From contig OY969114.1 in NCBI GenBank assembly GCA_963698035.1, positions 390,001-422,000 on the forward strand: a stretch of DNA of 32,000 bases, written 5' to 3'. The DNA is from Candidatus Saccharimonadota bacterium (GTDB taxonomy: Archaea > Micrarchaeota > Micrarchaeia > Micrarchaeales > Micrarchaeaceae). Position numbers and translations under genes: made by a program. Below the pieces are notes generated by a model that worked only from the letters and a program-made list of their open reading frames with translations, was not told the origin of the DNA and did not search any database. Each line of letters opens with the position of its first letter. Position 1 is the first letter of the stretch. Shown here in pieces: positions 393 to 25,847 of this stretch.

Positions 393-481
393 GCTCACAC
401 TTTAAGGATTTAGAACAGTCTTGACCGATAATCAGACCTGCTTCTTACCTTGGAACTACTGAATATATCCTCTCTTCATAT

Positions 482-757: not shown

Positions 758-761
758 AAAA

Positions 762-1328: not shown

Positions 1329-1428
1329 TCAATCGCTTCTGACTTTACAAAAAGGTCAACAGATATTGATTCATTAACTATAAAAGTCTTCGTTTGGTGG
1401 CAGGTTTTGCGGTCTTCCGGCAGAATAG

Positions 1429-1443
1429 CTATATTTAAATATT
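1429..1443 (+). promoter_or_regulatory. TATA-box-like element upstream of tfe
   Basis: ctatatttaaatatt is centred about 26 nt upstream of ATG 1462. This would give a leaderless or near-leaderless transcript. Confidence 0.3.
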
Positions 1444-1461
1444 TGAGGTGCGTTATATTAT

Positions 1462-2220: not shown

Positions 2221-2295
2221 CTTTCGATTCTAAAAATGTAGCTCGGTCTGCTTGTTTATATATTTTGCCGTCTAAAACATATTTGTATTTTATAA

Positions 2296-2370
2296 AGCGA
2301 GGTAGGGTAGTCTGGAGTGCCCGCTGGGCTCATAACCCAGAGATCAATGGTTCAAATCCATTCCTCGCTA
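2296..2370 (+). tRNA. initiator tRNA-Met (anticodon CAT)
   Basis: Hand-folded cloverleaf: acceptor AGCGAGG/CCTCGCT, D stem GGGT/GCCC, anticodon arm CTGGG-CTCATAA-CCCAG, T arm AATGG-TTCAAAT-CCATT, discriminator A. A1:U72 plus three G:C pairs closing the anticodon stem are initiator hallmarks. CCA is not encoded. Confidence 0.85.
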
Positions 2371-2391
2371 TAAAAATAAAAAAGGACAGTT

Positions 2392-2411
2392 GACCCTTTA
2401 CTTCCGCTAAT
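2392..2411. repeat. left arm of imperfect inverted repeat (ORB-like, reverse orientation)
   Basis: gaccctttacttccgctaat matches the reverse complement of 2501..2520 at 16 of 20 positions by my base-by-base comparison. Confidence 0.6.
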
Positions 2412-2500
2412 AAAGATTTTTTGAAACCTTATATATTGAAATCTTGTATAATAACCTTTATGTTTTATTTTTCATTATCATATATTATATAAAGCGCACG

Positions 2501-2520
2501 ATTAGTGGAAGTGTGGGGTC
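2501..2520. repeat. right arm of imperfect inverted repeat (ORB-like: AGTGGAA + spacer + GGGG)
   Basis: attagtggaagtgtggggtc. An AGTGGAA core followed 4 nt later by a G-run resembles archaeal origin recognition boxes as I remember them. Confidence 0.6.
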
Positions 2521-2526
2521 TAAGAG

Positions 2527-3018
2527 ATGACTACTGGAGATATGTCATACGATGTCCTTTGGCAGACGTATCAGAAGGAAAGGCAGTCCAACGAGCTGCA
2601 GCTCATGCCCAAAAACTTCTATGATAGCTTCAAGGAATTTATAAACTCGCACGCTACAGGCGCGGAGGACGAAAAGAGCCAGAAGGAGAACGCCGCAAAG
2701 CTACTCACCGGAATATTCGAAAAAAGGAGGCAGAAGATGCTGATATATGCAGCATACGGCAGGCAGTTGCCTTCACCCGCACCCCAGCAGGATGTTGAAT
2801 TCTACGAGCAGGCAATTAAGCTTTTAAAGTCGAATGCACTAGATTATAGCAAGGAAAAGCCTAAAGCTCAGACGCTGCGCTCCATGCAATCAATACCACA
2901 GATAATACTTCCGTCAGGGAGGAAGATAGGCCCGCTCGACAAGGAGCAGCTCATAGAAATAGAGGACAAGGAAGACACCACCTTCTTAATCAACAACGGA
3001 ATTTGCAGGCAGGCATAG
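2527..3018 (+). CDS. GINS subunit (Gins51/Gins15-like)
   Basis: 163 aa. N-terminal pattern YDVLWQTYQKERQSNELQLMPKNFYDSFKEFI and ENAAKLLTGIFEKRRQKMLIYA fit the helical A-domain of archaeal Gins51. A small C-terminal beta-type domain follows. Its position directly upstream of eL42 and aIF2alpha matches a known conserved archaeal neighbourhood. Confidence 0.55.
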   Translation: MTTGDMSYDVLWQTYQKERQSNELQLMPKNFYDSFKEFINSHATGAEDEKSQKENAAKLLTGIFEKRRQKMLIYAAYGRQLPSPAPQQDVEFYEQAIKLLKSNALDYSKEKPKAQTLRSMQSIPQIILPSGRKIGPLDKEQLIEIEDKEDTTFLINNGICRQA

Positions 3019-3025
3019 TGATTCA

Positions 3026-3310
3026 ATGAAGATGATCAAAGAGACTAGGACATACTGCCCAAAGTGCAACAAGCATACCCTGCATACGGTAAAGCTCTAC
3101 TCCAGCAAGCCGGCAAGCGGCCTCGGCGTCGGCGCAAGAAGGAGGAAAAGAAAGTTGAAGGGCTACCATGGCAAGGTGAAGGGCAAGGCAACGCAGACAA
3201 AGGCATCGAAGAGGCAGAAGATCCTCCTGGAGTGCAAGGAGTGCAAGTACGTAGTCGAAAGGGTTCTTGGCACAAGGACCAAGAAGAAGCTCGAGATAAA
3301 AGTACAGTGA
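3026..3310 (+). CDS. rpl44e: ribosomal protein eL42 (L44e)
   Basis: 94 aa with zinc-ribbon pairs CPKC...CKEC. RTYCPKCNKHTLHTV and the Lys/Arg-rich middle are typical of L44e. GTGAT (part of GGAGGTGATC) lies 3 nt upstream of the ATG. Confidence 0.9.
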   Translation: MKMIKETRTYCPKCNKHTLHTVKLYSSKPASGLGVGARRRKRKLKGYHGKVKGKATQTKASKRQKILLECKECKYVVERVLGTRTKKKLEIKVQ

Positions 3311-3316
3311 TTTAAA

Positions 3317-4108
3317 ATGCCATATGGAAATACACCAAGGATAGGGGAACTAGTCATAGCCCAGGTCTCCAAAATCTCGCAATTCGGCGCATACTGCAGG
3401 CTCCTCGAATACAACAACCTGGAGGTCTTCATGCCGATAAGGGAGGTCTCCTCCGGATGGATAAAGAACATCAGGGAGTTCATACACGAGGGGCAGAACC
3501 TCGTATGCAAGGTCACGCTTTACGACAAGGAGAGGAACACGATTGACGTCTCCCTGAAGAGGGTCACGCCAAAAGATGCCAAGGACAAGATAGGAATATA
3601 CAACCTTGAGAGGAGGCTCGCAGGCCTTCTGCAGCAGGCGGCCAAGCAGGCAGGATTGCAACCGAAGGACGAGATGCTCGGCAAGCTCCACTCCGAGTTC
3701 GGCAGCTATGCAAACCTCTTCCAGCAGGCGACCGCAAACTCCGAACAGTTCGAGAGGCTAAAGGTGCCAAAGAAGCTCAAGGAGGAGATACAGAAGGCGA
3801 TAGAGGCGAACAGGAAGGAAAAGCGGCACGACGTCTCTTACATAGCGACATTGGAAACTTACAACACCGAATCCGGTGCTACAGAACTGAGAGGCATGTT
3901 GACGGATGCGCAGAATGATGGGGTCGAGGTATCGTACATCAGCGCACCAAAGTACCGCTTCAGCTCGGAAGGCAAGGATTATGCAGAGGCGGAAGCAAAG
4001 ATAAAGAGGGTGGAGGTATCCATAACCTCTAAATTGAAGAAAGGCGTATTCAAGCTGGAGAAGGAGAAGCTAAGGAAGGAGAAGGAGGACATACTGGCGC
4101 AGATATGA
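3317..4108 (+). CDS. eif2a: translation initiation factor aIF2 alpha subunit
   Basis: 263 aa. N-terminal S1 domain PRIGELVIAQVSKISQFGAYCRLLEYNNLEVFMPIREVSSGWIKNIREFI is followed by helical and alpha-beta domains. GTGAT lies 5 nt upstream of the ATG. Confidence 0.9.
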   Translation: MPYGNTPRIGELVIAQVSKISQFGAYCRLLEYNNLEVFMPIREVSSGWIKNIREFIHEGQNLVCKVTLYDKERNTIDVSLKRVTPKDAKDKIGIYNLERRLAGLLQQAAKQAGLQPKDEMLGKLHSEFGSYANLFQQATANSEQFERLKVPKKLKEEIQKAIEANRKEKRHDVSYIATLETYNTESGATELRGMLTDAQNDGVEVSYISAPKYRFSSEGKDYAEAEAKIKRVEVSITSKLKKGVFKLEKEKLRKEKEDILAQI

Positions 4109-4112
4109 TTGC

Positions 4113-4907
4113 ATGGCAAAAGACGAGACATGGATAGTAGTAAAGAAAAAGGTGAAGCCGAACAAGCCGGTGCTTGTTGTAGGGCTGCCTGGAATCGGCA
4201 GCGTGGGCAGTCTGGTCGTCCACCACCTCAAGAACGAGTTCAATGCAACGAGGTTCGCCACATTGTATTCCGACCACTTTCCGCCTAGAGTGACAATGCT
4301 GAAAAATGGCACCATAAGGATGCCGTCAAACCGCTTCTACCTGCTGAAGAACAAAAAGAGCGGCCATGACATAGTGCTACTTCTCGGCGACGACCAGGCG
4401 GCAAGCGTAGAGGGGATGTACGCGGTCAACCAGAAGATAGTTGAGTTCTTCAAAAACACGCTCAAAGGCGAATTCATATACACGATTGGGGGTTATGGCG
4501 CCAGCGAGCCAATAACCGGCGCTCCAAAGGTCTTCGGCAACGCCTCCAGCAAAAAGGTAATCGAGCGGTTCGGCAAGACGGACATACTTTTCGGCAAATC
4601 AAGAGGGATGATACTCGGCGCGGCAGGCATGATAATCGGATTTGCAAAGATGAACGGCGTGCCAGCTGTCTGCCTCATGGGGGAGACCGCATTCGTAGGT
4701 CTTGATGCCGCAGCGGCAAAGGCGGTCCTGACGATACTCGGTACGCAGCTCAACCTCCCAATAGATACCAAAAATCTCGACAAGATAATAAATAAGACCG
4801 CCAATGCTCTGAAGGAGTTTGAGCAACAGATGATGCAGCAGCTGCAGATGCCGCAGCTGGGCCAGCAACCCGTCGCGCCAGACCAGAATCCAAGTTACAT
4901 AAGATAA
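4113..4907 (+). CDS. PAC2-family proteasome assembly chaperone-like protein (COG1938)
   Basis: 264 aa. PVLVVGLPGIGSVGSLVVHHL and VLLLGDDQA match the PAC2/PbaA-type motifs. It sits in the usual position downstream of aIF2alpha. Confidence 0.7.
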   Translation: MAKDETWIVVKKKVKPNKPVLVVGLPGIGSVGSLVVHHLKNEFNATRFATLYSDHFPPRVTMLKNGTIRMPSNRFYLLKNKKSGHDIVLLLGDDQAASVEGMYAVNQKIVEFFKNTLKGEFIYTIGGYGASEPITGAPKVFGNASSKKVIERFGKTDILFGKSRGMILGAAGMIIGFAKMNGVPAVCLMGETAFVGLDAAAAKAVLTILGTQLNLPIDTKNLDKIINKTANALKEFEQQMMQQLQMPQLGQQPVAPDQNPSYIR

Positions 4908-4993
4908 GCGCCAGTAGTCTAGCCTGGTAGGACACCAGCTTCCCAACTAAAAGGAAATAGCTGGATGCCCGGGTTCAAATCCCGGCTGGCGCA
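4908..4993 (+). tRNA. tRNA-Gly (anticodon CCC) with a 13-nt intron
   Basis: Acceptor GCGCCAG/CTGGCGC, D arm GTCT-AGCCTGGTA-GGAC, anticodon stem CCAGC/GCTGG enclosing 20 nt (a 7-nt loop TTCCCAA plus 13 extra nt), T arm CCGGG-TTCAAAT-CCCGG, discriminator A. It starts on the base after the PAC2 stop codon and ends 1 nt before the next gene's stop. Confidence 0.75.
4946..4958 (+). other. tRNA intron at the canonical 37/38 position
   Basis: ACTAAAAGGAAAT. Intron GGAA pairs with anticodon-loop TTCC to give a 4-bp helix. The 3' splice site lies in a 3-nt bulge and the 5' site in a 9-nt loop. The boundary can slide by 1 nt because of flanking A residues. Confidence 0.6.
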
Positions 4994-4994
4994 T

Positions 4995-5693
4995 CTAGAT
5001 CAATATAAGCGCCAGCACCAGAATTCCAACCATGCCGCCGCAGATGCTGCAGAAGAAGTTCGAGGTGAACTTGTTTCCGATCCCTTTCTCCTCAAAGTGG
5101 CCCAGCATTGAATCTACAAGTGTGCCCGCGAATCCACCAATTGTCGCTGCAAGGAGGACATAGAATGTCAATCCCGCAAGATTCACTGGGAATATTAGTG
5201 AAGCGATAGCGCCAAACGGTGCGGCTATCAGCACTGCAGCAAACAATCCTGCCGAGAGGCCGAGTGCGGTTATCCCTCCTGATACACCCCTCCTTACCTT
5301 GCGCATGTTCAGTATGTCACGCGGGATGCCATCAAGCAAGCCTATCTCGCTGCTGAACTTGTCAGCTGTTATTGAGGCTACGCTGCTCCCGAATCCCACC
5401 AGTGCCATGCAGGTCCAGAACGGGTGGCCCAGTGCCATTGAAAAGAAGACAACAACAGCGAATATCAGGGGGCCGCATCCGTTCGAAAGGACGTTGGCTA
5501 TGCTCCTGCTGGCCTCATAGACCCCCAGCTGCTTTTTGCGCTTCATCCCGCTCACAGTGACTATGGCAGACAGAATCAGGAAGTAGAGCATGAAGATTAC
5601 AAAAAAGAAGCGGAACCCATTTAGGACAAAGAGCACGAGCCCAAGCAGGACGGCTGCGGCAACCCCTTTTGCGTCGAGAGTAAGGAAGGTCAT
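4995..5693 (-). CDS. DUF92/TMEM19-family integral membrane protein (COG1836)
   Basis: 232 aa and polytopic. Motifs RSIANVLSNG, TADKFSSEIG, GGITALGLSAG and GTLVDSMLG match the DUF92 family pattern. Confidence 0.7.
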   Translation of the reverse strand: MTFLTLDAKGVAAAVLLGLVLFVLNGFRFFFVIFMLYFLILSAIVTVSGMKRKKQLGVYEASRSIANVLSNGCGPLIFAVVVFFSMALGHPFWTCMALVGFGSSVASITADKFSSEIGLLDGIPRDILNMRKVRRGVSGGITALGLSAGLFAAVLIAAPFGAIASLIFPVNLAGLTFYVLLAATIGGFAGTLVDSMLGHFEEKGIGNKFTSNFFCSICGGMVGILVLALILI

Positions 5694-10497: not shown

Positions 10498-13074
10498 TCA
10501 ACATGAGTTTTCAATCAATATATTCTGGGTATATGTGTCTTTTGGTGTTCCTTTTGGAATGCCAAGGCCGAAGTAAATTGTGTTTGATCCAGAGGGAGCA
10601 ATGACGATGCCCATACTATTATAGCTTGAGGAAAGCGCATTACCCGCATATGTGCCAAGCGATGTTGGACTCCACAAGGTATTACCAATGCCAAAAGTAT
10701 CACTTACAATCAGACCGTTCCAAGCACTTCCAGATAGATATATGCTCGCCCCCACAGTACCAAGGTCATTATCTGTTACCGAATAACTGGTTGGAGTATT
10801 TGCGTTAGGGGCAATACCCCCAAAATTTATCACGTTTGTACTCAATGATACGAAACAGTTTGCGAGATTGAATGTTATTGGTACTGTACTTCCTGCGACA
10901 GCGTTGCCGCTGAGCGGCGAAGGTATATAGTTGCCGCTGATTATAACATTGGCAACCGTATACGGATAGTTGCCTGGCGTAAAAGAGAATACAATACTGT
11001 TTGGTACGATCACATTCAGGGTTTGACTATTATATACTACGTTCCACCCCTCGCCACTATTCGGCAGCCCTGTCTCCGAGAAGGTTGTCAGACCATTCCA
11101 AGTGGCTGTTAGAATTCCATTACCCTCTACAGTAAAATACGTGTTCTGCGTAAGGGGACTGGCAACAATAAGGTTTGCGCTGCTCACGAGCCACGAATTA
11201 AAGGTATATGTGCTTCCTGGAGAGATTGCATTCAGCGTGAAAGTGCCCAACATGCTACTGTTAAACGCATTATTTGCATATTGAACTCCTGGAGATACTA
11301 CAGAAGCCACTATATTTCCAGTTGTCGGTCCATCCGTGAAAATTACATTGTATGGGGGGAAAATAGCCGCAGCTATAGATATTGCTCCAATGCCAGTGGT
11401 AACTATATTAGCAATATACCCATTTCCAACAGCTACCGAATTACAAGTAATAATTGATGAAGATGATTCTCCTTTACTAGTAGTCACAGACACATATTGG
11501 TCTGTAGTGCATCCAGTAGATATACCACTTGTAACTGAAGTAGTCGCATTGCTTGATGCAAACATGACTATCACAAAACTGTTGGCTGTAAGAACATTAT
11601 AGCTAAGCGTTAGTGTTTTCACCCTTGTTGTTGTGGTGCTTATTCCTACAACCTTGCCGTTTGCAAATATTACGTTTGCCCCTATGCCGGTAAGGGTAGT
11701 ATTCTCTCTACTGACCGTACCTGCCAAGGTCCAAGTGCCCGTACTACTGCTGGTTTGCCAGCCTATGCTTGTATGGTTCTCACGGTCGGCGCCTATACTA
11801 TCATTTGTGATTATAGTCCATGTCACGGTCGGTGCGGTTGTTGAGTGTTCTCGTCCGCCACCGCTGAAGAAGTATGTGGTATAGATGCTAGGTGTGATCG
11901 TTAGGGAGACGGGCGTCGTAGTCGAAATAACATTGCCTGTTGCAAATCCAACGGCATAATTAGAAAAAGAATTCGACAATGCGCTATAGAAATAATAAGT
12001 CGCATTGGACCCCGTAAATGTCGTGCTAAGGGAGCTCCACACACCCGAATCGTATTTAAATAGCCTTATATTACCGCTGCTAATTCCTTGCGACACCACC
12101 CACGATTGCGGCACCGAGAAGTTGTATGTTACGTTGTTGACCAATGAGTCTATATTTGCGCTTGAACCAACAATCGTGCCATTTATCTGTATATATTGAT
12201 ATACCGGAGACAACGAGAATTTGATCTGTTGTGGAGCCTGGGTTTGATTTGCAACCGTTATATTGAGCTCTATGTTATTTTTCAATAGGTTGGTATGTAC
12301 GCCTTCTAGCGGGGATCCTTTTAGGGAGAACGCCGCTGTATTATTCGGCGCATACACAATTCCATTGTACTTGCCGTTTCCCGTATGGTTCAAGTACTGA
12401 TTTTGTACTGCGGGTACCGCCTGTATTGTGGTTGTGGAGGATAGCGTTGTTGTAGACGAGCTTGTCATTGACGAGGTGATTGAAGTTGTTGTAATAGGGA
12501 TGCCAGTGAATGTTATCGTGATAACGCTGCCAGCAGCAAGCAAACCACCCAAGGGCGAAGGAGTGTAATTTAATCCATTTGCCGTAATGCTCGAAACAAG
12601 ATACATGTAGTTGCCGGGCGATGTCGAAAATATCGTGCTATTCGGCGTCACAGCGACCTGCACAATCCCATTGTAGGAGACATTCCAGGCGATTCCGCTC
12701 GGCAGACCGGTTTCCACGAAAAGCGTATTGTATAGCGCAAAAGCTAAAGATGTGGTCGATGCCGAAGAGCTTGTACTGGATGATGTGCTAGTCACGCTAG
12801 AGGTCGTGGAAGAGATGGAAGTTGAGGAAAAGAGGATGGTGGAAGAGGAAACGGAGGTGGAGGAGATTGAAGTGGAAGAGACGGAGGTGGAAGAAATGGA
12901 AGTTGAAGAGACGAGAGTGGTGGAGACGGAGGTGCTGCTCAGAGTTAACGTATTGTTATCGAACAAAACCAAGGTCCTATGTGCCATTGAGGCAGGCGCA
13001 ATCAGGACTCCTGCGAGGAGCAGCCCCAAGCACAACGTAACCATAACCTTACTTACTCCTCTCACAGATGGCAC
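10498..13074 (-). CDS. large secreted surface protein (Ser/Thr repeats, two FxETGLPxGxxWxV beta-sandwich domains, C-terminal Cys-bounded domain)
   Basis: 858 aa. Signal MPSVRGVSKVMVTLCLGLLLAGVLIAPASMA (GTG start; ATG 13044 is the alternative). FVETGLPSGIAWNVSYNG and FSETGLPNSGEGWNVVYNS are domains known from Thermoplasmatales/Sulfolobales surface and thermopsin-like proteins. It has many N-x-S/T sequons and ends ...YFGLGIPKGTPKDTYTQNILIENSC. Confidence 0.7.
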   Translation of the reverse strand: MPSVRGVSKVMVTLCLGLLLAGVLIAPASMAHRTLVLFDNNTLTLSSTSVSTTLVSSTSISSTSVSSTSISSTSVSSSTILFSSTSISSTTSSVTSTSSSTSSSASTTSLAFALYNTLFVETGLPSGIAWNVSYNGIVQVAVTPNSTIFSTSPGNYMYLVSSITANGLNYTPSPLGGLLAAGSVITITFTGIPITTTSITSSMTSSSTTTLSSTTTIQAVPAVQNQYLNHTGNGKYNGIVYAPNNTAAFSLKGSPLEGVHTNLLKNNIELNITVANQTQAPQQIKFSLSPVYQYIQINGTIVGSSANIDSLVNNVTYNFSVPQSWVVSQGISSGNIRLFKYDSGVWSSLSTTFTGSNATYYFYSALSNSFSNYAVGFATGNVISTTTPVSLTITPSIYTTYFFSGGGREHSTTAPTVTWTIITNDSIGADRENHTSIGWQTSSSTGTWTLAGTVSRENTTLTGIGANVIFANGKVVGISTTTTRVKTLTLSYNVLTANSFVIVMFASSNATTSVTSGISTGCTTDQYVSVTTSKGESSSSIITCNSVAVGNGYIANIVTTGIGAISIAAAIFPPYNVIFTDGPTTGNIVASVVSPGVQYANNAFNSSMLGTFTLNAISPGSTYTFNSWLVSSANLIVASPLTQNTYFTVEGNGILTATWNGLTTFSETGLPNSGEGWNVVYNSQTLNVIVPNSIVFSFTPGNYPYTVANVIISGNYIPSPLSGNAVAGSTVPITFNLANCFVSLSTNVINFGGIAPNANTPTSYSVTDNDLGTVGASIYLSGSAWNGLIVSDTFGIGNTLWSPTSLGTYAGNALSSSYNSMGIVIAPSGSNTIYFGLGIPKGTPKDTYTQNILIENSC
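12751..12942 (-). repeat. Ser/Thr-coding low-complexity tandem repeat (about 30-nt unit STSISSTSVS) inside the 858-aa gene
   Basis: Protein residues 45-108 read SSTSVSTTLVSSTSISSTSVSSTSISSTSVSSSTILFSSTSISSTTSSVTSTSSSTSSSASTTS. The plus strand shows the mirrored gaagaNatggaagttgaNga periodicity. Confidence 0.7.
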
Positions 13075-16503: not shown

Positions 16504-17559
16504 TCAGTAGAGTACCTTTATCTCCTCATATCTAAATTTCTTTGGAGGCTTACCCGCTATAGGTATGCTATTCCCGCACTTGAGGCAGCGCATCTGTGCG
16601 TCAAGGTGCCAGCCAATAACGTAGTGCCCGGCTCTCTCAACTGCAACCGCATTGCACTTAGGGCAGTACGTGTTTTCGTATGGGTTGCCGGGAACATTGC
16701 CGATGTAGACATATTCAAGCCCGTTCTTCTTTGCTATTTCATAGTGCTTTTTCAGTGTAGCGAAGCTGGTTTCTTCATAGTCAAGCATCTTGTAATCCGG
16801 ATGGAACCGGATGAATTGCATTGGAATGTCTGTGCCTGCCTCATCTGCAATCCACTTTGTAAGCTTGTCGCACGCCCCGAGCGAGTCTCCAACTCTTGGA
16901 ATTATCAGGTCGGTCAGCTCTACGTGTATGCCTGCCTTGCGCAATTCAATTATCGACTCCTTGACTGGCTCATTGGACACCACGGCCTCAAACCTGTTTG
17001 CGAACTTCTGCTCACAATTTCCCTTCAAGTCAACAACAGCCGCATCTATCAGCCCCCTCATTTCAGATATGGTCTCCTTTGTCATGTATCCGTTCGTTAC
17101 AAAAAGGTTGTAGAGCCCCCTCTTGTGCGCCGCCTTTGCTACGTCAAGCGCGTATTCAATAAATATCGTCGGTTCATTGTAGGTGTAGGCTATGCATTCG
17201 GTCCCATTCTCTATGGCAAGCTCTACCACCCCCTCGGGGCTCATCTCAACTCCTTGGATCTCCTTATCTTTGGAGATGTTGTGGTTCTGGCAAAAGAGGC
17301 AACCCCAATTGCACGAAGATGTTCCAATCCCAAGGACGTAGCTACCAGGCATAAAGTGACTGAACGGCTTTTTCTCTATCGGATCCACCTGCATCGCAGA
17401 TATTATCCCATAATTTATCAGATTGAGCTTGCCATCCATGTTTTTCCTAACAAAACAGAACCCATTAGACCCGTTCGGTATCCTGCAACGTCTTGCGCAG
17501 GCTACGCATTCAACCTTTTTATCCGGCAAAGGGTTCCAGAGGACTGCTTTCTTTATCAT
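16504..17559 (-). CDS. AmmeMemoRadiSam-system radical SAM enzyme (PflA-like, COG1180)
   Basis: 351 aa. N-terminal CVACARRC, radical SAM cluster CNWGCLFC, YTYNEPTIFIEY, and a C-terminal zinc ribbon CPKC...CLKC. Confidence 0.85.
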   Translation of the reverse strand: MIKKAVLWNPLPDKKVECVACARRCRIPNGSNGFCFVRKNMDGKLNLINYGIISAMQVDPIEKKPFSHFMPGSYVLGIGTSSCNWGCLFCQNHNISKDKEIQGVEMSPEGVVELAIENGTECIAYTYNEPTIFIEYALDVAKAAHKRGLYNLFVTNGYMTKETISEMRGLIDAAVVDLKGNCEQKFANRFEAVVSNEPVKESIIELRKAGIHVELTDLIIPRVGDSLGACDKLTKWIADEAGTDIPMQFIRFHPDYKMLDYEETSFATLKKHYEIAKKNGLEYVYIGNVPGNPYENTYCPKCNAVAVERAGHYVIGWHLDAQMRCLKCGNSIPIAGKPPKKFRYEEIKVLY

Positions 17560-17594
17560 CAGTATTACTTATCTTGAATAATATTTAACGCTTA

Positions 17595-17605
17595 CTGAAA
17601 ATGAG
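17595..17605. repeat. 11-bp direct repeat, left copy (putative target-site duplication)
   Basis: ctgaaaatgag is identical to 21373..21383 and directly abuts the left terminal inverted repeat. Confidence 0.75.
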
Positions 17606-17624
17606 GCTTTGTCCGAGAAGTATC
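17606..17624. repeat. left terminal inverted repeat
   Basis: gctttgtccgagaagtatc. The reverse complement of 21354..21372 is gctttgtccgtaaagtatc, so the first 10 nt are identical and there are 2 mismatches overall. Confidence 0.75.
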
Positions 17625-17678
17625 CACAAAGTGCTACTTATTGGACAGAAAAGCGACTTTCTGGACAGAGGTGTGTAA

Positions 17679-18245
17679 ATGAATAGGTTTTACACACTTA
17701 AAGGCTCTTTTACAGCAGATAAGATTACCTATTCCCTTAGGGCAAATGTATTTAAGGGTTGTATCAAAAGTAAATATGTGTCTGATAGCAAATTCTATTA
17801 TTATAGAATGTGGTGTAGAGACCGTGGATATAATAAAAGTCTCCCCGCTTTAATTGAAAGAGAAGACTGGGAGGACAACACCAAAAAGTATAAAGTAGAC
17901 CACAGTGATGGGACTTTAGACGAAATTGTAATAGAAAAAACAAGTAGTGGGTATTTTGGCAAGATAATAAGAACTAAACCAAAACAACAATACTTCGGTA
18001 AAAACGAAGGAGAAAAGAAAGTCGAAGTGCTAAAAACCGATTCAGAATTAATTGGGGAAAGAGCAAGAGAAATTACATACCTCGCATTTTTGCCTTATAA
18101 TTTAAACGATTTGCTCTTTTTGATAGAGCTTCATTTCGGAAGTCGAGGAATGAGAACAGTAAGGAAGTTTTTTGAACAATGTATATCACAACCATATGAT
18201 ATCAAAGCAGAACCTCTCAAAGTTCGTTCAAAAGAAGTTAGATGA
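17679..18245 (+). CDS. hypothetical protein (188 aa), no recognisable domain
   Basis: AT-rich codon usage like the neighbouring R-M gene. AGAGGTG lies 6 nt upstream of the ATG. The gene ends 35 nt upstream of the R-M gene on the same strand. I recognise no motif. Confidence 0.5.
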   Translation: MNRFYTLKGSFTADKITYSLRANVFKGCIKSKYVSDSKFYYYRMWCRDRGYNKSLPALIEREDWEDNTKKYKVDHSDGTLDEIVIEKTSSGYFGKIIRTKPKQQYFGKNEGEKKVEVLKTDSELIGERAREITYLAFLPYNLNDLLFLIELHFGSRGMRTVRKFFEQCISQPYDIKAEPLKVRSKEVR

Positions 18246-18280
18246 AGAAATAGACGTTCAGGGTTGGAAAGAGGATTAAT

Positions 18281-21200
18281 ATGACATTTACGCCTCTCTC
18301 AAAAGATGAAGCGAGGATAAAACTCAAAGAACTCGTAGAGCAGTTTGAAAATAATCTAACGGCTTATGAGAGTTCTGTGTATAAAGAAAGTCGTGTAGAA
18401 AGCGATTATATTGAAAAATTCTTTACCATTCTTGGATGGGATGTAAATAATGATAACGGCTATTCGGAATTATACAGAGATGTTATAAAAAGAGAAAATG
18501 TTGAGATAAAAGGACACCATAAAGAAGCCGATTATGCCTTTACGATAGGAGGAAGTAATATCGCATTTTTTGTAGAAGCAAAAAAGCCATCGGTTGATGT
18601 AAATCATTCAAAAGAACCTGCGTATCAAATTAGGAATTATGCTTGGAATAGTAAAAATCCTGTTTCTATCCTTACAAACTTCAAGGAGTTCTCTATTTAC
18701 GATTGCAGAATAAAACCTAATGAAAAGGATGACTCAAGAGTAGCGAGAATATCCTATATAACCTTTAAAGAGTATTTAGATAAGTTTGATTTTCTCTATG
18801 ATACTTTTTCGCAATCTGCTGTTAAAAAAGGTAGCCTTGAAAGATACATAGACAAATCAAACAAATCTGTTTCTGAAGTAGATGATGAGTTCTTAAAAGA
18901 GTTAGAACTATGGAGAAAAGACCTTGCTAAAGATATCGCAATAAACAATTCAAAATTAACAATTGCTGAATTGAATTATGCGGTTCAAATGATATTAAAC
19001 AGAATCCTTTTTCTTAGAATAGCAGAAGACAAGAGCATAGAGAAGGAAGATACACTAAAGACTATTTCAGATAGCAAAAATATCTATAGGAAACTTTTGG
19101 ATTATTTTGAGGAAGCTGATACAAAATATAATAGTGGTATATTTGATTTTGAATTGGATAAAATAACACCAGATTTGAAAATTGATGATAATACTCTAAA
19201 GAAGATAGTAGAGAATCTTTATTATCCTAAATCACCATACAATTTTAAAGTAATCAGTATCGAAATATTAGGAAGTGCCTATGAAAGATTCTTAGGAAAT
19301 ACATTAAGACTTACTGCATCTCATCAAGTAAAAGTAGAGCAAAAACCACTTGTTAAGAAATCTGGTGGGATTTATTACACACCTGAATTTGTTGTTGATT
19401 ACATAATCAAAAATACACTTGGTAAAAGAATAGAGGGTAAAACGCCAGAGCAAATAAAAGATATACGAATTTTGGATATGGCTTGCGGTTCTGGAACATT
19501 TTTGGTTAGAGCATACAAATATCTTTTAGATTATATCCTCGATTATTACCTCAAGGATAAAGCTAAATACAAAAATAAGATATATCAATTACCAAATAAC
19601 CAATATTCTTTGACTACTGACTTAAAGAAAAAGATATTGCTGAATAGCGTTTTTGGTATAGATATCGACTCTCAAGCTGTCGAGATAACAAAACTGAGTC
19701 TTCTATTGAAGGTTTTGGAAAACGAAACAAAAGATAGTGTTAATAGACAACTAAAACTTTTCAAAGAGCGAGCCTTGCCTAATCTTGATAAGAACATAAG
19801 ATGTGGAAACTCAATAGTAGATTCATCATACTTTAATCAGAGTAATTTTAATGATGATGCTGAAAAGAAGCAAAGGCTTAATCCTTTTGATTGGGATAGT
19901 GTAGAAAATGGTTTTGGCTATCTTGGTAATATCAAATTTGATATTATAATAGGAAACCCGCCTTATGTCAAAGAATATACATATAGAGAGCCATTCGAAG
20001 ATGTAAAGCAAACAGACCTAAAGAAATATTATCAAGGGAAAATGGATTTATGGTATATATTTACTTGTGAATCAATAGACCTACTGAAAGAACACGGCTT
20101 CCATAGTTATATCGCACTTAATAATTGGATAACTAATTCTGGAGCTTCAAAACTAAGGGATAAGATACTGACTGATACAAAAATGCTATCATTCTTCGAC
20201 TTTAATGAATATCAGGTTTTCAAAAAGAAAGCAAGCAATCAAACAATGGTCTTTGTATTGGAAAAGGATTCAAGGATAAAGCCATACTATACTGAATATT
20301 TCAGAGTCTTAGATAAGAAGATTACGAAGGGAGAGTTAATCAGTTATTTTAATTCAAAAGAAGGTAATAAAATTGAACGTTATAAAGTTCTGATAAATCC
20401 GAAAGAGTTGAAAGACAAGAAAATAAACTTCATAAATTCGGGGATTGGGGAAGTCATAGGCAAAATAGCTGGTAAAGCTAATTATTTCCTTACAGAAAAG
20501 AATGTCGCACAAGGCATAGTAAGTCCTCAAGAATATGTGTTAGAGTCTCATCTTAAGTATCTTAGTTCTGGTGTTAAAAAGGATGAGGGCATATTTGTTT
20601 TGAAGCAGTCAGAGGTTAAGGCTCTTGGATTGAATCATAGTGAAAATGAAATTATCAAACCATTTTATACAACAAACCAACTACATAGATATTACGCCGA
20701 CCAAAAGAATGATTTATGGATAATATACGCAGATATGAATGTCCGCAAGAGCATAAGAGATTATCCGCATATAAAGGAACATCTTGACAGATTTAGAAAG
20801 GTTATGACATCAGATTTCAAACCTTATGGATTGCACAGAGCAAGAGAGCCTAAGTTCTTCGAAGGTAGCAAAATTCTATCACTAAGGAAAACAGATAGAC
20901 CATTCTTTACCTATGCAGATTTCCCCTGTTATGTATCTCAAACGTATTTCATAATCAAACCAGACGATATTGACTTGAAATACCTTACAGGTCTTCTTAA
21001 TTCTAACTTGATATTCTTTTGGCTAAAGCATAAGGGTAAGAAACAAGGAAATCAATTACAAGTAGATAAAGAACCTCTACTTGAAATTCCCATATATAAA
21101 CCCGACAAGAACGAAAATGGCATAAAAGATGATATAGCACAACTTGTTGATAAGATAATCAATCTTGAAAAACAGAAGCATAATGTAAGGTTGGATTCTG

Positions 21201-21319
21201 ATAAAAGGGTTATAGAGCAAGAAATATCCTCTTACGAAAAACAGATAAACAAGTTAGTATATAAACTCTATAAAATAGAAAATTACTCTGAGACTATAGA
21301 AAGCGATGTGAAATTATGA
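18281..21319 (+). CDS. type IIG restriction-modification enzyme (fused PD-ExK nuclease, gamma-class N6-adenine methyltransferase and target-recognition domain; Eco57I/BpuSI/MmeI-like)
   Basis: 1012 aa. N-terminal nuclease motif EADYAF...FFVEAKKPS (D...ExK). Methyltransferase motifs GIYYTPEFVVDYII, ILDMACGSGTFLV (motif I), FGIDIDSQAVEITKLSL and IIGNPPYVKE (motif IV). A roughly 400-aa C-terminal region is a plausible TRD. GGAAAGAGGA lies upstream of the ATG. Confidence 0.85.
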   Translation: MTFTPLSKDEARIKLKELVEQFENNLTAYESSVYKESRVESDYIEKFFTILGWDVNNDNGYSELYRDVIKRENVEIKGHHKEADYAFTIGGSNIAFFVEAKKPSVDVNHSKEPAYQIRNYAWNSKNPVSILTNFKEFSIYDCRIKPNEKDDSRVARISYITFKEYLDKFDFLYDTFSQSAVKKGSLERYIDKSNKSVSEVDDEFLKELELWRKDLAKDIAINNSKLTIAELNYAVQMILNRILFLRIAEDKSIEKEDTLKTISDSKNIYRKLLDYFEEADTKYNSGIFDFELDKITPDLKIDDNTLKKIVENLYYPKSPYNFKVISIEILGSAYERFLGNTLRLTASHQVKVEQKPLVKKSGGIYYTPEFVVDYIIKNTLGKRIEGKTPEQIKDIRILDMACGSGTFLVRAYKYLLDYILDYYLKDKAKYKNKIYQLPNNQYSLTTDLKKKILLNSVFGIDIDSQAVEITKLSLLLKVLENETKDSVNRQLKLFKERALPNLDKNIRCGNSIVDSSYFNQSNFNDDAEKKQRLNPFDWDSVENGFGYLGNIKFDIIIGNPPYVKEYTYREPFEDVKQTDLKKYYQGKMDLWYIFTCESIDLLKEHGFHSYIALNNWITNSGASKLRDKILTDTKMLSFFDFNEYQVFKKKASNQTMVFVLEKDSRIKPYYTEYFRVLDKKITKGELISYFNSKEGNKIERYKVLINPKELKDKKINFINSGIGEVIGKIAGKANYFLTEKNVAQGIVSPQEYVLESHLKYLSSGVKKDEGIFVLKQSEVKALGLNHSENEIIKPFYTTNQLHRYYADQKNDLWIIYADMNVRKSIRDYPHIKEHLDRFRKVMTSDFKPYGLHRAREPKFFEGSKILSLRKTDRPFFTYADFPCYVSQTYFIIKPDDIDLKYLTGLLNSNLIFFWLKHKGKKQGNQLQVDKEPLLEIPIYKPDKNENGIKDDIAQLVDKIINLEKQKHNVRLDSDKRVIEQEISSYEKQINKLVYKLYKIENYSETIESDVKL

Positions 21320-21353
21320 CTTTATGGACAAGATTGACACTTTACGGACAAAC

Positions 21354-21372
21354 GATACTTTACGGACAAAGC
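21354..21372. repeat. right terminal inverted repeat
   Basis: gatactttacggacaaagc. See the left TIR. Confidence 0.75.
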
Positions 21373-21383
21373 CTGAAAATGAG
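21373..21383. repeat. 11-bp direct repeat, right copy
   Basis: ctgaaaatgag is identical to 17595..17605. Confidence 0.75.
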
Positions 21384-21519: not shown

Positions 21520-23430
21520 ATGGCTGATAGCGATTATAGTGCAAAGGACATAATGGTGCTTTCTGGGCCCCAGGGCATCAGGAAAAGACCCGCGATGTAC
21601 ATAGGTTCGACCGCCAGCGGCGGCTTTATCCACCTGCTCTACGAGGTCCTAGACAACGCCATCGACGAGGCCATGGCAGGCTATGCAAAGACCGTAACAG
21701 TAAGGCTGAGCAAAGATGAGGATACAGACGTTGCTGAAGTGAGCGACGATGGCAGGGGCATACCTATAGACATAATACCAAAGGTGGGCAAGCCCGCTCT
21801 TGAGGTTATAATGACCTCCCTTCATGCAGGCGCTAAGTTTGAAAACAAAGTCTACAAAGTATCCGGAGGCCTTCACGGCGTCGGTCTTACAGTTGTGAAT
21901 TCACTATCAGAATACACAGAGGTTACGGTAAAGAAAGAAGGCAAGATATACAGGCAAAGATTCAGCAGAGGCGCAGTCATAACCCCGCTTGAGGTGGTAG
22001 GAACCGTTGAAGAGGGGCGCAGCGGCACAGCAATAAAGTTCAAGCCTGACAAGGAAATCTTCTCCGCCAAGAGCTTTGATACTATAGAACTCATAGAGAG
22101 GGTGAGGGACCTCGCATATCTCAATCCAGGCCTGCGCATAATCTTCATAGACGAGCGTGAACAGCCCCCAAAACAAATCGAATACTTCTCGAAGAACGGA
22201 CTGGAAGACTTCCTTGCCCACATAAGGGGAGATAGACAGGAGATAAGCAAACCCATATCTATAAAGAAGCACGCCGATTCGCTCAAGCTCGACATCATAA
22301 TGCAGTATGTTAATTCATATTCAGAAGATGTGCTCTCTTTTGTCAACAAAATAAAGACCGCTCAGGGCGGAACCCACGTAACAGGATTCAGGGGCGCTCT
22401 GACCAGGGCGATAACGAACTACAACCAGAAGAACGGTAAAAAGAAGAACAACATAGCTCTTGAAGGCGATGACACACGCGAGGGCCTGATAGTGATAATA
22501 TCCCTACTCATGCAGAATCCGGAATTTGAGGGGCAGACAAAGGAGAAGCTGGGCAACAACAGCATAAAGGCCTTCATAGAAAATGCCTTCTATTCAGAAT
22601 TCTCAAGATATTTGGAAGAGAATCCGGCAGAAGCAGCAAAGATAATGGACAAGGTATACACCGCCGCAGAAGCAAGAGAATCAGCAAGGCGTGCGCGCGA
22701 CCTTGCAAGGAAGAAGGGCCTATTCGAAGGCGCCATACTCCCCGGAAAGCTCTCCGACTGCACAGAAACAGACCCAGAAAAGTGCGAGATATTCATTGTG
22801 GAGGGAGAAAGCGCGGCAGGTTCCAGCAAGGAAGCCAGGGATAGGTTCTATCAGGCTATACTACCTCTGCGAGGCAAGGTACTGAATGTTGAAAAGGCAA
22901 CAGAGGAGAAAATATTCGCGAATGCCGAGCTGCACGCCATGGTGACAGCGCTAGGCACAGGAATAAAGGAGTCATTTAATCCAGACGGCGCAAGGTACAA
23001 CAAAATAATACTATTGACAGATGCAGACGTTGACGGCAGCCACATAAGGACGCTGCTGCTTACCTTCCTTTACAGGTACATGAAGCCACTAATAGAAAGG
23101 GGGTACGTGTACATCGGGCAGCCCCCGCTCTATAAAGTCGTAAAGGGCAGGGATGTCAAATATGCTTACTCCGACCAGCAACTAAATGAAATTATGAAAG
23201 GATTTGACGGAAAGGGCACGCTCCAGAGGTACAAGGGTCTTGGTGAAATGAATCCCGAACAGCTCTGGGAGACCACAATGGACCCCAAGAATAGGGTGCT
23301 AAAGAGGATTACAATAGGGGACGCGGAGCTTGCCAATACGATGTTCATCATACTTATGGGCCTTGATGTTGAGAAGAGAAGGCACTTCCTGGAGGATCAT
23401 GCAAGCGAGGTAAAGTTCCTTGATATATAG
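21520..23430 (+). CDS. gyrB: DNA gyrase subunit B
   Basis: 636 aa. GHKL N-box LLYEVLDNAIDEAMAG, GLHGVG, Toprim IVEGESAAGS, PLRGKVLNVEKA, LTDADVDGSHIRTLLLTF, and QRYKGLGEMNPEQLWETTMDP. Confidence 0.95.
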   Translation: MADSDYSAKDIMVLSGPQGIRKRPAMYIGSTASGGFIHLLYEVLDNAIDEAMAGYAKTVTVRLSKDEDTDVAEVSDDGRGIPIDIIPKVGKPALEVIMTSLHAGAKFENKVYKVSGGLHGVGLTVVNSLSEYTEVTVKKEGKIYRQRFSRGAVITPLEVVGTVEEGRSGTAIKFKPDKEIFSAKSFDTIELIERVRDLAYLNPGLRIIFIDEREQPPKQIEYFSKNGLEDFLAHIRGDRQEISKPISIKKHADSLKLDIIMQYVNSYSEDVLSFVNKIKTAQGGTHVTGFRGALTRAITNYNQKNGKKKNNIALEGDDTREGLIVIISLLMQNPEFEGQTKEKLGNNSIKAFIENAFYSEFSRYLEENPAEAAKIMDKVYTAAEARESARRARDLARKKGLFEGAILPGKLSDCTETDPEKCEIFIVEGESAAGSSKEARDRFYQAILPLRGKVLNVEKATEEKIFANAELHAMVTALGTGIKESFNPDGARYNKIILLTDADVDGSHIRTLLLTFLYRYMKPLIERGYVYIGQPPLYKVVKGRDVKYAYSDQQLNEIMKGFDGKGTLQRYKGLGEMNPEQLWETTMDPKNRVLKRITIGDAELANTMFIILMGLDVEKRRHFLEDHASEVKFLDI

Positions 23431-23438
23431 TGTTTTGA

Positions 23439-25847
23439 ATGGCTGAAAATAGTTACCTGGAAACTCAAATAGAGAAGGAGATGCAGTCAAGCTATCTCGA
23501 TTATGCTATGAGCGTAATCATAGGCAGGGCTCTCCCCGACGTAAGGGACGGCCTGAAGCCAGCCCAGAGAAGGATACTTTGGGCTATGTACGGGCTGGGC
23601 AATTTCCACGATCAACCAACAAAAAAGAGCGCGAGAATAGTGGGGGAAACTATCGGAAAGTACCATCCGCACGGCGACATAGCTGCCTACGGCACACTGA
23701 TAAGGATGGCGCAGTCCTTCTCTATGAACCACACGCTTGTAGAAGGTCAAGGAAATATGGGCTCGATTGACGGAGATCCTCCAGCCGCGCAAAGATACAC
23801 AGAGGTAAGGCTGAACAGGTTCGCCGAAGAGATGCTCACAGACATTGAGAAGAAAGCTGTGCCGTTCGTCCCGAACTTCGACAATACAGAAGAGGAGCCA
23901 CTGATACTTCCTGCAAAAGTGCCGCACCTATTGATTAACGGCGCATCCGGCATCGCAGTAGGGGTCGCCACAAACATAATGCAGCATAACCTAAGGGAGG
24001 TCTGCGACGCTGTGGTCGCGTATGTTGATAAACCGGAAATAACTCCACAGGAACTGCTCCAATACATAAAAGGACCAGACTTCCCTACTGGCGGAACAGT
24101 ATTCTACAGCAACATGCTCGTCTCGTCATATCTGAACGGAAGGGGGTCGTGCACGATAAGGGGCAAGACCGTAATCGAGGAGCAGAAGAACAGAAACACC
24201 ATAATAATAAAAGAGATCCCGTACAATGTGAACAAGGCGACTCTCGTTCAGAAAATAGCCGAGCTTGTGAAAGACAAGAAGATACAGGGCATAAGCGACC
24301 TTCGGGACGAGAGCGGAAAGGAGGGCATACGGATCGTGATAGAGCTAAGGAAGGACTCCAACCCGGAGGCCGTCCTGAACACACTCTATAAACATACCCA
24401 ACTACAGGTCACCATACCGGTCATGAACATCGCCGTGATAAAGAACAGCCTTGTAACGCTCAACCTTAAGCAGTTTATAAAGGTCTTCATCGACCACCGA
24501 GTCGAGGTAATAAAGGCCCGCACAAAGTACGATCTTGACGTTGCGTCGGACCGGCTCCACATAGTAGAGGGCCTTCTTATAGCGATTGCAAACATCAACG
24601 AGGTCATCGGAACAATAAAGAAGAGTTCTGATACAAAGGAGGCAAGGTCCAACCTCATCAAGGCTTACAGCATAACCGAGAAGCAGGCGAATGCCATACT
24701 CGACATGAAGCTGAGCAAGCTCACAAGCCTTGAGAGCACCTCCCTGGAGGGCGAGAAGGCCGACCTGGCAGGCAGCATAAAGAACCTAAAGGAGATACTC
24801 GAGAACGAGGGCAGGGTCTTCCAGATTATAAAAGAAGAGACCAAAGAGATAAAGGAGAAGTACGGCAGGGAGAGGCGCACCGTCATAGAGAGCAACACCG
24901 GCATAGAAGAGATAGAGAACGAGGACCTCATCGTGGACGCCGAGACCACCGTCATACTCACAAAGAACAGTTACATGAAGAGGATGCCCACAAGCGTATA
25001 CAAGACGCAGGGGAGGGGCGGCAGGGGAGTCATAGCAATAGGACTGCGGGAGGGCGACTTCGTGAAGCAAATCACCTCGTGCAAGGCGAAGGACTACCTC
25101 CTTGTCCTAACCAACAAGGGCCGTGCATACTGGCTCAAAGCGTACCAGGTACCCGAGACGAACAGGTATAGTGTGGGAAAACCCGCGGTCAACCTTGTCA
25201 AGCTAACGGACAACGAGACAGTGGAGAAGATAGTCAACACAAGGGCATTCGCCGAAAACTTCCTGACGTTCATAACCAAGAAGGGCACAATAAAGCGGGT
25301 CAAAGCAGAGAGCTTCTCTAAGCCGAGGGCTTCAGGCATAATCGCCGTGCCCATCAACCAGGGAGACTCCCTTGCGGATGTCTGCATATCTGACGGAAGC
25401 TCGAACATCTTCATAGCCACCAGGAAGGGCAAGGCATTGCGTTTCAACGAGAAGGACATAAGGTCGATGGGCAGAAACGCGCATGGGGTGCGGGGAATAA
25501 GGCTGTCACTTGGGGACGAGGTGGTCAACCTCCTCCAAGCCAAGGAATCCAACCTCATAGCAACCATAACAGAGAACGGATTTGGAAAGGCAACGAAGTT
25601 GGATGAGTACAGACTGCAGAGGAGGGGCGGCAAGGGCGTGATAAACCTGAAGGTAAAGGATAAGACGGGTCCGGTAGTGAAATCCCTAAAATCGTCCGAA
25701 TCGTCAGAAATTCTTCTAATAAACTCGAAGGGGCTTTCTATACAGTTCCCAGTTTCCGCGATAAGGGTGACCGGCAGGAGCGCCTCAGGTGTCAGGCTGA
25801 TGCGCGTAGATCGCGGAGTGACTGTGGTAGACGCCCAGATACTCTAA
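23439..25847 (+). CDS. gyrA: DNA gyrase subunit A
   Basis: 802 aa. YLDYAMSVIIGRALPDVRDGLKPAQRRILW, KSARIVGETIGKYHPHGD, active-site region AAQRYTEVRL, and C-terminal beta-pinwheel repeats (GRGGRGV, RRGGKGV, GRSASGV). Confidence 0.95.
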   Translation: MAENSYLETQIEKEMQSSYLDYAMSVIIGRALPDVRDGLKPAQRRILWAMYGLGNFHDQPTKKSARIVGETIGKYHPHGDIAAYGTLIRMAQSFSMNHTLVEGQGNMGSIDGDPPAAQRYTEVRLNRFAEEMLTDIEKKAVPFVPNFDNTEEEPLILPAKVPHLLINGASGIAVGVATNIMQHNLREVCDAVVAYVDKPEITPQELLQYIKGPDFPTGGTVFYSNMLVSSYLNGRGSCTIRGKTVIEEQKNRNTIIIKEIPYNVNKATLVQKIAELVKDKKIQGISDLRDESGKEGIRIVIELRKDSNPEAVLNTLYKHTQLQVTIPVMNIAVIKNSLVTLNLKQFIKVFIDHRVEVIKARTKYDLDVASDRLHIVEGLLIAIANINEVIGTIKKSSDTKEARSNLIKAYSITEKQANAILDMKLSKLTSLESTSLEGEKADLAGSIKNLKEILENEGRVFQIIKEETKEIKEKYGRERRTVIESNTGIEEIENEDLIVDAETTVILTKNSYMKRMPTSVYKTQGRGGRGVIAIGLREGDFVKQITSCKAKDYLLVLTNKGRAYWLKAYQVPETNRYSVGKPAVNLVKLTDNETVEKIVNTRAFAENFLTFITKKGTIKRVKAESFSKPRASGIIAVPINQGDSLADVCISDGSSNIFIATRKGKALRFNEKDIRSMGRNAHGVRGIRLSLGDEVVNLLQAKESNLIATITENGFGKATKLDEYRLQRRGGKGVINLKVKDKTGPVVKSLKSSESSEILLINSKGLSIQFPVSAIRVTGRSASGVRLMRVDRGVTVVDAQIL

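Follow-up and report, generated by a model that had tools for sequence, protein, structure and literature searches.

The window analysed here comprises 32,000 nucleotides of contig OY969114.1 (positions 390,001 to 422,000) and contains, at 17605-21373, an AT-rich element of 3,769 bp set between a radical-SAM gene and gyrB. The G+C content of the element is about 0.32 against about 0.49 in the flanks, and the profile passes from 0.47-0.50 on either side to 0.30-0.36 within, the change falling exactly at a pair of short direct repeats. Two open reading frames (ORFs) lie inside, both on the plus strand: one at 17679-18245 (188 aa) and one at 18281-21319 (1012 aa), the latter an intact type IIG restriction-modification (R-M) gene. 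A sequence-only reading of this DNA had proposed an AT-rich insertion resembling a transposon of the DDE type, flanked by a target duplication and ending in inverted repeats, which brought a type IIG R-M enzyme, and no recombinase, to an archaeon. The insertion itself is now borne out by recurring ends, exact duplications and DDE transposases in relatives. Furthermore, scans of the two proteins of the element against Pfam, NCBIfam, PHROGs and PADLOC returned no transposase or recombinase, and three transposases used as tblastn queries against the window gave no match. The element is non-autonomous, as had been supposed.

The insertion between the radical-SAM gene and gyrB is the derived state. 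In five related Micrarchaeota species (loci L006, L007, L012, L016 and L019) the two genes are separated by an element-free spacer of 147-199 bp; these are other species and not the same population. When the element is taken out together with one copy of the repeat, a spacer of 183 bp is restored, close to those of the relatives and to the 180 bp or so that had been predicted, and the reconstructed empty site reads ...AACGCTTACTGAAAATGAGAAGTCGCAGG.... A promoter-like box, ATATTTAAC, at 17581-17589 beside the radical-SAM gene and just outside the insertion, is kept in the relatives. A second box, AAAGGGTTTTAAA, upstream of gyrB is likewise conserved in them and present in the reconstructed spacer. 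As both conserved boxes are intact, the element landed between two divergent promoters and destroyed neither. The nearest relatives of the radical-SAM protein (61-74% identity) are metagenome-assembled genomes (MAGs) of Micrarchaeota, and the host is therefore a DPANN archaeon, in line with the archaeal origin first suggested. In L008 the gyrB/radical-SAM spacer is 1.47 kb long and was considered as a possible mobile element, but it holds an ordinary 406-aa ORF (judged without a family-library scan) and was set aside.

The exact 11-bp direct repeat ctgaaaatgag, described from the sequence alone, does exist (17595-17605 and 21373-21383), and no third copy occurs in the window at up to one mismatch. 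Inverted arms at 17606-17624 and 21354-21372 adjoin the direct repeats, and a repeat search returned a pair of 21 nt with 90% complementarity. The duplication proper is nevertheless 9 bp long, as the register common to all six elements with these termini consists of an 8-bp terminus (GGCTTTGT / ACAAAGCC) and a 9-bp duplication; the 11-bp repeat of the window results from the 9-bp duplication plus one coincident base per side. Similarly, the imperfect inverted repeats previously scored as 17/19 are real, and in the 9-bp register they match at 18 of 20 positions. The third unit of the right end starts on the last base of the R-M stop codon.

At other sites there are further copies that share these ends, each with a different duplication, and the refuting outcome named in the first reading, a failure to recur at any other copy or empty site, is thus not observed. 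About 2 Mb of fetched DNA was scanned for CTTTGT...ACAAAG pairs with the 8-bp termini and adjacent 9-bp sequences differing by no more than one mismatch. Besides the window element, which came up twice since a second assembly also carries it, this recovered just four elements, all ending in the same termini, and every match was 9/9; as only elements with these termini emerged from some 2 Mb, the ends and duplication of the window are not a product of chance. With L161/L172 added, exact 9-bp duplications are present in 6 of 6 independent elements, the window included, and their sequence differs from site to site (Table 1). One of these, L001, is an AT-rich island of 1.64 kb in an archaeal contig that also encodes CGI-121; it holds the gene for one of the two close relatives of the 188-aa protein, and its ends align with those of the window. 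The two have in common the left-end region and a RexA-like gene (72% nucleotide identity) as well as homologous termini, at unrelated sites and with different duplications. Transposase-less copies with cargo inside perfect duplications include L001, with a RexA/RexB-like pair, and L189, with an IetA/IetS pair.

The ends belong to a wider family. The right-end pattern CTTTGTNNNNAAAGTN{4,6}TTGTNNNTAAAGT, derived from two known right ends, matched 32 metagenome loci; GG or AG directly precedes the match in 27 of these, and in most a third unit follows some 20 nt inwards. This end family is considered real because matches of such regularity were judged not to arise by chance. Across 23 distinct ends the consensus reads gGCTTTGT.tatAAAGTc..TtTTGT.TaTAAAGTc....tttTgt.taaAaagTc. 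The two ends of an element are asymmetric: one consists of three direct units of 13-15 nt, and the other of the terminal unit and two reversed units. The reversed-unit end, which could form a hairpin, lies at 17605-17672 in the window, L001:186-255, L182:5515-5583 and L189:4170-4240, with a DNA fold z of -2.7 at the left end of the window and of -7.8 in L189. From this layout we infer that the units are putative transposase-binding sites. Elements with these ends range from 1.3 to 7.8 kb. No right end of an L088-type element was found on the contigs examined. Matches of viral contigs to GGCTTTGTCCGNNAAGT were discarded as chance, since there were 71 single hits against a chance estimate of about 100 and no contig had two.

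Table 1. Features of the window and positions of sister elements with the same termini (loci other than the window are named in the first column).
Feature	Position	Strand	Length	Evidence or remarks
AmmeMemoRadiSam radical-SAM gene, host flank	16504..17559	-		TIGR04337, E 8.5e-101
Left copy of target-site duplication, TGAAAATGA	17596..17604	.	9 bp	9/9 vs 21374-21382
Left terminal inverted repeat, GGCTTTGTCCGAGAAGTATC	17605..17624	+		18/20 vs right terminus; first 8 nt equal to the IS903 terminus
Two subterminal units, opposite to the terminal unit	ACTTATTGGACA 17636-17647, ACTTTCTGGACA 17656-17667	-		Same layout at the matching end of L001, L182 and L189
RexA-like gene remnant	17775..18245	+	about 149 N-terminal codons and a short out-of-frame tail	70% / 59% identity to P0002 / P0003
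3' fragment of 53-aa gene, deletion junction	18211..18288	+		82-83% nucleotide identity to L088:4716-4787 and L003:2868-2945
Type IIG R-M gene, intact	18281..21319	+	1012 aa	Pfam and PADLOC
Right end, three direct units (21357-21371, 21339-21352, 21319-21332), end ...ACAAAGCC	21319..21373	-		Terminal inverted repeat proper 21354-21373
Right copy of target-site duplication, TGAAAATGA	21374..21382	.	9 bp	9/9 vs 17596-17604
gyrB, host flank	21520..23430	+		Followed by gyrA at 23439-25847; divergent from the radical-SAM gene in L006, L007, L012, L016 and L019
L001 element	186-1828		1,643 bp	9-bp duplication GCATACCGG
L167 element	1329-3369		2,041 bp	9-bp duplication CGTAGTACC
L182 element	4253-5583		1,331 bp	9-bp duplication TCCAAAACC
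L189 element	416-4240		3,825 bp	9-bp duplication TGGGGCGGG
L161/L172 element, one contig			about 7.8 kb if both loci abut	Shared 9-bp duplication GAATACGTA

The R-M protein matches the Pfam families Eco57I, MmeI_Mtase, N6_Mtase and TaqI_C, and weakly HSDR_N and HSDR_N_2, whereas the PADLOC model REase_MTase_IIG (profile length 1011) covers residues 10-1006 at an expect value (E) of 3.4e-176. Its translation contains the methyltransferase motifs NPPY and DMACGSG and an N-terminal nuclease-like D...EAK motif. It therefore fits the type IIG architecture, with a predicted N-terminal nuclease of the PD-(D/E)xK type, a gamma-class N6-adenine methyltransferase and a C-terminal specificity domain. The closest relatives, at 55-81% identity, come from uncultured DPANN archaea. 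The nearest of all has 81% protein and 77% DNA identity, the DNA homology being restricted to 18278-21325, and is carried on a different element, one with a tyrosine integrase. This suggests that an integrative element is another vehicle for the same R-M gene. At that locus, the integrase gene (L194:105-1388) lies 3.6 kb from the R-M homologue (L194:5001-8042), and such contigs are available from several assemblies.

The 188-aa ORF has a mechanical start at 17679, and the likely true start is a GTG at 17775. It had no match in Pfam, NCBIfam, PHROGs or PADLOC, and only two close relatives were present among 5.8 billion proteins: P0002 (301 aa) and P0003 (302 aa). As it aligns to the N-terminal halves only of these proteins of about 300 aa, it is a truncated remnant. 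A profile search found the family in 32 clusters among 1.8 billion representatives; against PDB sequences the profile gave only noise, and no match to Rex families was obtained at the sequence level. An AlphaFold2 model of P0002, built on the family alignment, reached a predicted local distance difference test score (pLDDT) of 87.9 and a predicted template modelling score (pTM) of 0.87. In a Foldseek search the top PDB match of this model was lambda RexA (8twq; E 3.4e-7, probability 1.0), with 277 aligned columns or near full length. The template modelling score (TM-score) of this pair is 0.3, which could be due to the hinged orientation of two domains. Five uncharacterised phage proteins of 277-322 aa match as well, at E 1e-10 to 6e-7.

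Full-length RexA-like genes are followed by an overlapping partner gene of 157-158 aa in L001, L003 and L087/88, and four hydrophobic segments were computed in the partner proteins of L001 and L003; in L086 only the first 76 residues of the partner are on the contig. The archaeal two-gene modules span L001:311-1689, L003:180-1554, L088:1942-3403 and L086:2232-3405. The window has lost the partner gene by deletion and is therefore without a Rex-like system. On the strength of the modelled fold and of the partner gene in relatives, the 188-aa protein is read as the remnant of a Rex-like abortive-infection module and not as a mobility factor. In three loci a transposase gene of the IS240/rve_3 type with a SWIM domain (383-385 aa; L088:3389-4540, L087:1834-2985 and L003:1540-2697) lies on the opposite strand and overlaps the stop of the RexB-like gene. 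It was rejected as the transposase of these elements, being of a different DDE class and having no matching GGCTTTGT right end after it, and it is probably a separate insertion sequence (IS) nested in the cassette.

The junction between the remnant and the R-M gene records a replacement of cargo. From the left end of the element up to about 18221 the window shows DNA homology to L001, and there a 3' fragment of a 53-aa gene takes over; the source gene sits downstream of the RexA/RexB-like pair in L088 and L003, and the changeover coincides with a AACCTCTCAAA-like microhomology common to both. The GGAAAGAGG motif of the fragment now precedes the R-M start codon, and the R-M ORF begins where the next gene after the 53-aa gene would begin. 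Since the homology switches at a microhomology and that of the R-M gene is confined to its ORF, the cassette is a mosaic: a second defence module now stands in place of an earlier one, and the ends on either side are conserved. In other loci a GNAT acetyltransferase gene comes after the 53-aa ORF (L088:4623-5345 and L087:3068-3790), and the two look like a toxin-antitoxin pair; in L003 (2775-3441) its place is taken by a 167-aa ORF without a Pfam match.

Autonomous elements with the same terminal architecture, L167 and L161/L172, occur in other organisms and metagenomes. The single long ORF of L167 (371 aa) has the motifs DST, DGGYD and Y(2)R(3)E(6)K and belongs to a family of 191 clusters, mostly with precomputed matches to PF01609 (DDE_Tnp_1); members in Methanoperedens, Methanobacterium and Methanolobus are named "ISNCY family transposase" or "transposase" in their sources. 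L172 encodes a 395-aa SWIM and DDE_Tnp_1 protein that matches the IS5 model NF033579 at E 6e-38 and the IS4 model at 7.5e-11, and that is 26% identical to the IS903 transposase over the catalytic core (E 4e-11). This transposase is probably the element's own, as no separate inverted repeats were found around its gene. Assemblies tend to break at these IS copies. For instance, the contigs of transposase P0170 (Candidatus Methanoperedens sp.) are broken at the IS, one of them with the expected right end and an unreadable left end, and a contig look-up for transposase P0205 (Methanosarcina sp. MTP4) had no match. A Methanoperedens MAG contig, L199, has two ...TACACAAAGCC ends (1395-1442 and 3660-3706), one of them 227 bp beyond a transposase gene of the L167 type, with the other some 2.3 kb past it.

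The window element derives from archaeal insertion sequences of the DDE_Tnp_1 (IS4/IS5) superfamily. For comparison, a 227-nt sequence of IS903 matched thousands of plasmids at 95-100% identity; a matched element on a K. pneumoniae plasmid, annotated "IS5-like element IS903 family transposase", reads GGCTTTGTTGAATAAATC...GATTTATTCAACAAAGCC. The window termini, GGCTTTGTCCG... and ...ACAAAGCC, begin with GGC and are identical to IS903 over the first 8 nt, and direct repeats of 9 bp have been reported for IS903B copies (PMC10513040). Terminus and duplication length thus match the IS903 group of the IS5 family and not IS4. The lineage appears IS5-like, whereas membership of the IS903 group is unproven: the window element has no transposase, those of its relatives are divergent, and the elements, larger and with multi-unit asymmetric ends, lack the compact form of about 1 kb with simple short repeats.

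Taken together, the locus is very probably a non-autonomous mobile insertion cassette of an IS903-like DDE_Tnp_1 lineage, which inserted by a 9-bp staggered reaction, presumably with a transposase supplied in trans, and delivered the type IIG R-M gene to a Micrarchaeon. Such a DDE transposase would have recognised both ends of the element and made a staggered 9-bp cleavage in the 183-bp spacer, leading to duplication of TGAAAATGA. The ancestral cargo may have been an abortive-infection pair of the RexA/RexB-like kind with more small genes behind it. A microhomology-mediated deletion would have cut away the RexB-like gene completely, together with the C-terminal half of the RexA-like gene and the greater part of the 53-aa gene. 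The R-M gene, kin to the one on the integrase-bearing DPANN element, would then have come to fill the downstream position. We infer both the mobilisation in trans and this order of rearrangements.

Several observations weigh against this explanation. The L172 transposase scores 131 bits, below the 140-bit curated cut-off of NF033579, and the L167 type matches the IS5 model weakly (E 4.6e-4), also below the curated cut-off, and is labelled ISNCY by NCBI. These two autonomous transposase types are very divergent from one another (BLASTP E 0.098). The multi-unit asymmetric ends and the sizes of the elements are unlike IS903. In addition, no autonomous partner with closely matching GGCTTTGTCCG... 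ends was found, either among the elements of other organisms and metagenomes or within the 32 kb covered of the 777-kb host contig, and no empty-site allele of the same population was recovered, as exact-protein look-ups with the radical-SAM protein and GyrB brought up just two contigs, the source contig and one from Logan, both occupied.

Among the other explanations, the main one treats the element as a fossil that inserted as a different, possibly autonomous version and then lost its transposase and had its cargo swapped in place, so that the present cassette never moved. The rearranged interior, with its deletion junction and its R-M homology confined to the ORF, is in keeping with this, as are the lack of a partner transposase in the window and the larger relatives L172 and L174, which hold transposase and cargo together. 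However, in the transposase-less L001, L182 and L189, which lie at unrelated sites, the ends are intact and the 9-bp duplications perfect, for which movement in trans is the simpler account, and the window itself has kept intact ends (18/20, three units) and a duplication without mismatch; the fossil is therefore considered improbable. The IS4-like affinity with an 11-bp duplication, which had been favoured from the sequence alone, fares worse. The exact 11-bp repeat does exist, duplications of the IS4 family span 9-12 bp, a range with which 9 bp is compatible too, and the Y(2)R(3)E(6)K motif of the related transposases is reportedly described as an IS4 hallmark in a review of that family. Yet 11 bp fits the window only, against a 9-bp register in all six elements, and IS4 termini typically begin with CA or CT (ISfinder tables), whereas those found here begin with GGC as in IS903. 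The L172 transposase, moreover, favours the IS5 over the IS4 model. An IS4 element is accordingly very unlikely.

A site-specific island, made by a tyrosine or serine recombinase and with the direct repeat as att core, might be suspected from the tyrosine integrase beside the closest R-M homologue, but it is scarcely tenable, as no recombinase is encoded, no tRNA lies at the element junction, and the repeat sequence varies from copy to copy at a constant 9 bp, the inverted termini being conserved instead. A casposon or integrase-island reading was likewise rejected, there being no Cas1, no integrase and duplications that are variable 9-mers. The least credible proposal is that the 188-aa protein, once put forward as a novel mobility factor, or its full-length family of about 300 aa, is a new mobility enzyme for these ends. 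In the window, L001 and L088 the gene does stand next to the left end, and no Pfam family includes its product. Against this, the full-length family appears to have the fold of lambda RexA, is always followed by the four-helix membrane protein and shows no conserved acidic triad; L167, L182, L189 and L172 lack it although they share these ends, and L086 has it without such ends.

Two further features of the window lie away from the element. A tRNA-Val gene (anticodon AAC) at 4908-4993 was called with a length of 86 nt, which exceeds that of a standard tRNA, and may hold an intron or an extended arm. Mild dips in G+C content, to 0.41-0.45 against about 0.50, occur at 10500-12500, within an 858-aa ORF (10498-13074), and at 2001-2500, around a tRNA-Met gene.

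Sister elements carry other defence genes. L189, inserted in a RhuM-like gene, has a complete IetA/IetS pair (PADLOC E 4e-136 and 0) and no transposase, L192 encodes a TIR-domain protein (match to PDC-S54), L172 a KAP/NACHT-like NTPase (match to PDC-S49), and L174 a RiboL-PSP HEPN protein together with DUF5677. In L088 and L087 the Rex-like pair and the nested IS are followed by the 53-aa gene and the GNAT gene. The cargo seen in the family thus includes type IIG R-M, RexAB-like, IetAS, TIR, HEPN and STAND/KAP NTPase genes and toxin-antitoxin-like pairs, which suggests a bias towards defence genes in a sample that is small and unsystematic. It is conceivable, and offered here as a tentative proposal, that these elements form an undescribed IS903-like transposon family, widespread in archaea and possibly beyond, with asymmetric three-unit ends, which serves as a set of dedicated anti-virus gene shuttles that swap their cargo when the conserved ends recombine. 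On that view, no Rex-type abortive-infection system would have been recognised in archaea before the RexA/RexB-like pairs found on them.

The acquisition and exchange of immunity genes in DPANN archaea, with their tiny genomes, is poorly documented. The present locus provides a base-resolved case of a defence gene delivered by a transposase-less, IS-derived cassette, and Rex-like two-gene modules are indicated in archaeal genomes. Furthermore, the signature of GGCTTTGT, three repeat units and a 9-bp duplication could be used to delimit defence cargo in metagenomes and to find defence genes by association, as has been possible with Tn7-like elements.

Each part of the cassette can be compared with a known system. 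The R-M enzyme resembles Eco57I and MmeI, type IIG enzymes in which nuclease, gamma-class N6-adenine methyltransferase and TaqI_C-like specificity domain follow one another in one chain of about 1,000 aa. Lambda RexA is a soluble protein of 31 kDa and RexB a 16-kDa protein with four transmembrane helices (PMC11077077). The archaeal modules are similar in the predicted RexA-like fold of the full-length relatives, whose gene overlaps by 4 bp with the next one, for a 157-aa protein containing four hydrophobic segments. They differ in their archaeal host, their position outside a prophage immunity region and their lack of detectable sequence similarity, and the window keeps only the N-terminal half of the RexA-like gene. 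The literature found on Rex-like systems concerns only phages and bacterial prophages.

With regard to the mobile part, IS903 and the window element have the first 8 terminal bases (GGCTTTGT...ACAAAGCC) and a 9-bp duplication in common, and a DDE_Tnp_1 core is found in both IS903 and the transposase of a related autonomous element. IS903 is bacterial, 1,057 bp long and composed of simple 18-bp inverted repeats and one transposase gene; the window element, in contrast, is archaeal, 3,769 bp long, without a transposase and bounded by asymmetric ends of about 55 bp with three repeat units, and one of the related transposase types has an N-terminal SWIM finger. In Tn7, multiple subterminal transposase-binding repeats are arranged asymmetrically between the two ends, much as the repeat units of the window family, if indeed these are binding sites, differ between its two ends. 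Tn7-like transposons are also known for variable cargo dominated by defence systems (PMC8649781). Their 5-bp duplication, TGT termini and TnsABC(D/E) proteins are all lacking from the window element, and the resemblance is best seen as a functional analogy and not as homology.

The nearest parallel in overall design is that of mobile insertion cassettes (PMC3129680, PMC4337579), such as MIC231 of the Bacillus cereus group and the Tn3-derived cassettes of Xanthomonas, where IS-type inverted repeats and a target duplication surround passenger genes without a transposase and mobilisation in trans is presumed. The window element likewise has IS-type termini and a duplication, passengers without a transposase and evidence of mobility, namely the empty arrangement in relatives and the copies at other sites. 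The parent element in those cases is IS231/IS4 or Tn3, whereas here it would be IS903-like, the host is a DPANN archaeon and the cargo is for defence. As such, this kind of element is already known, and what sets the present one apart is its archaeal host, its asymmetric three-unit ends, its visible cargo swap and its association with Rex-like modules.

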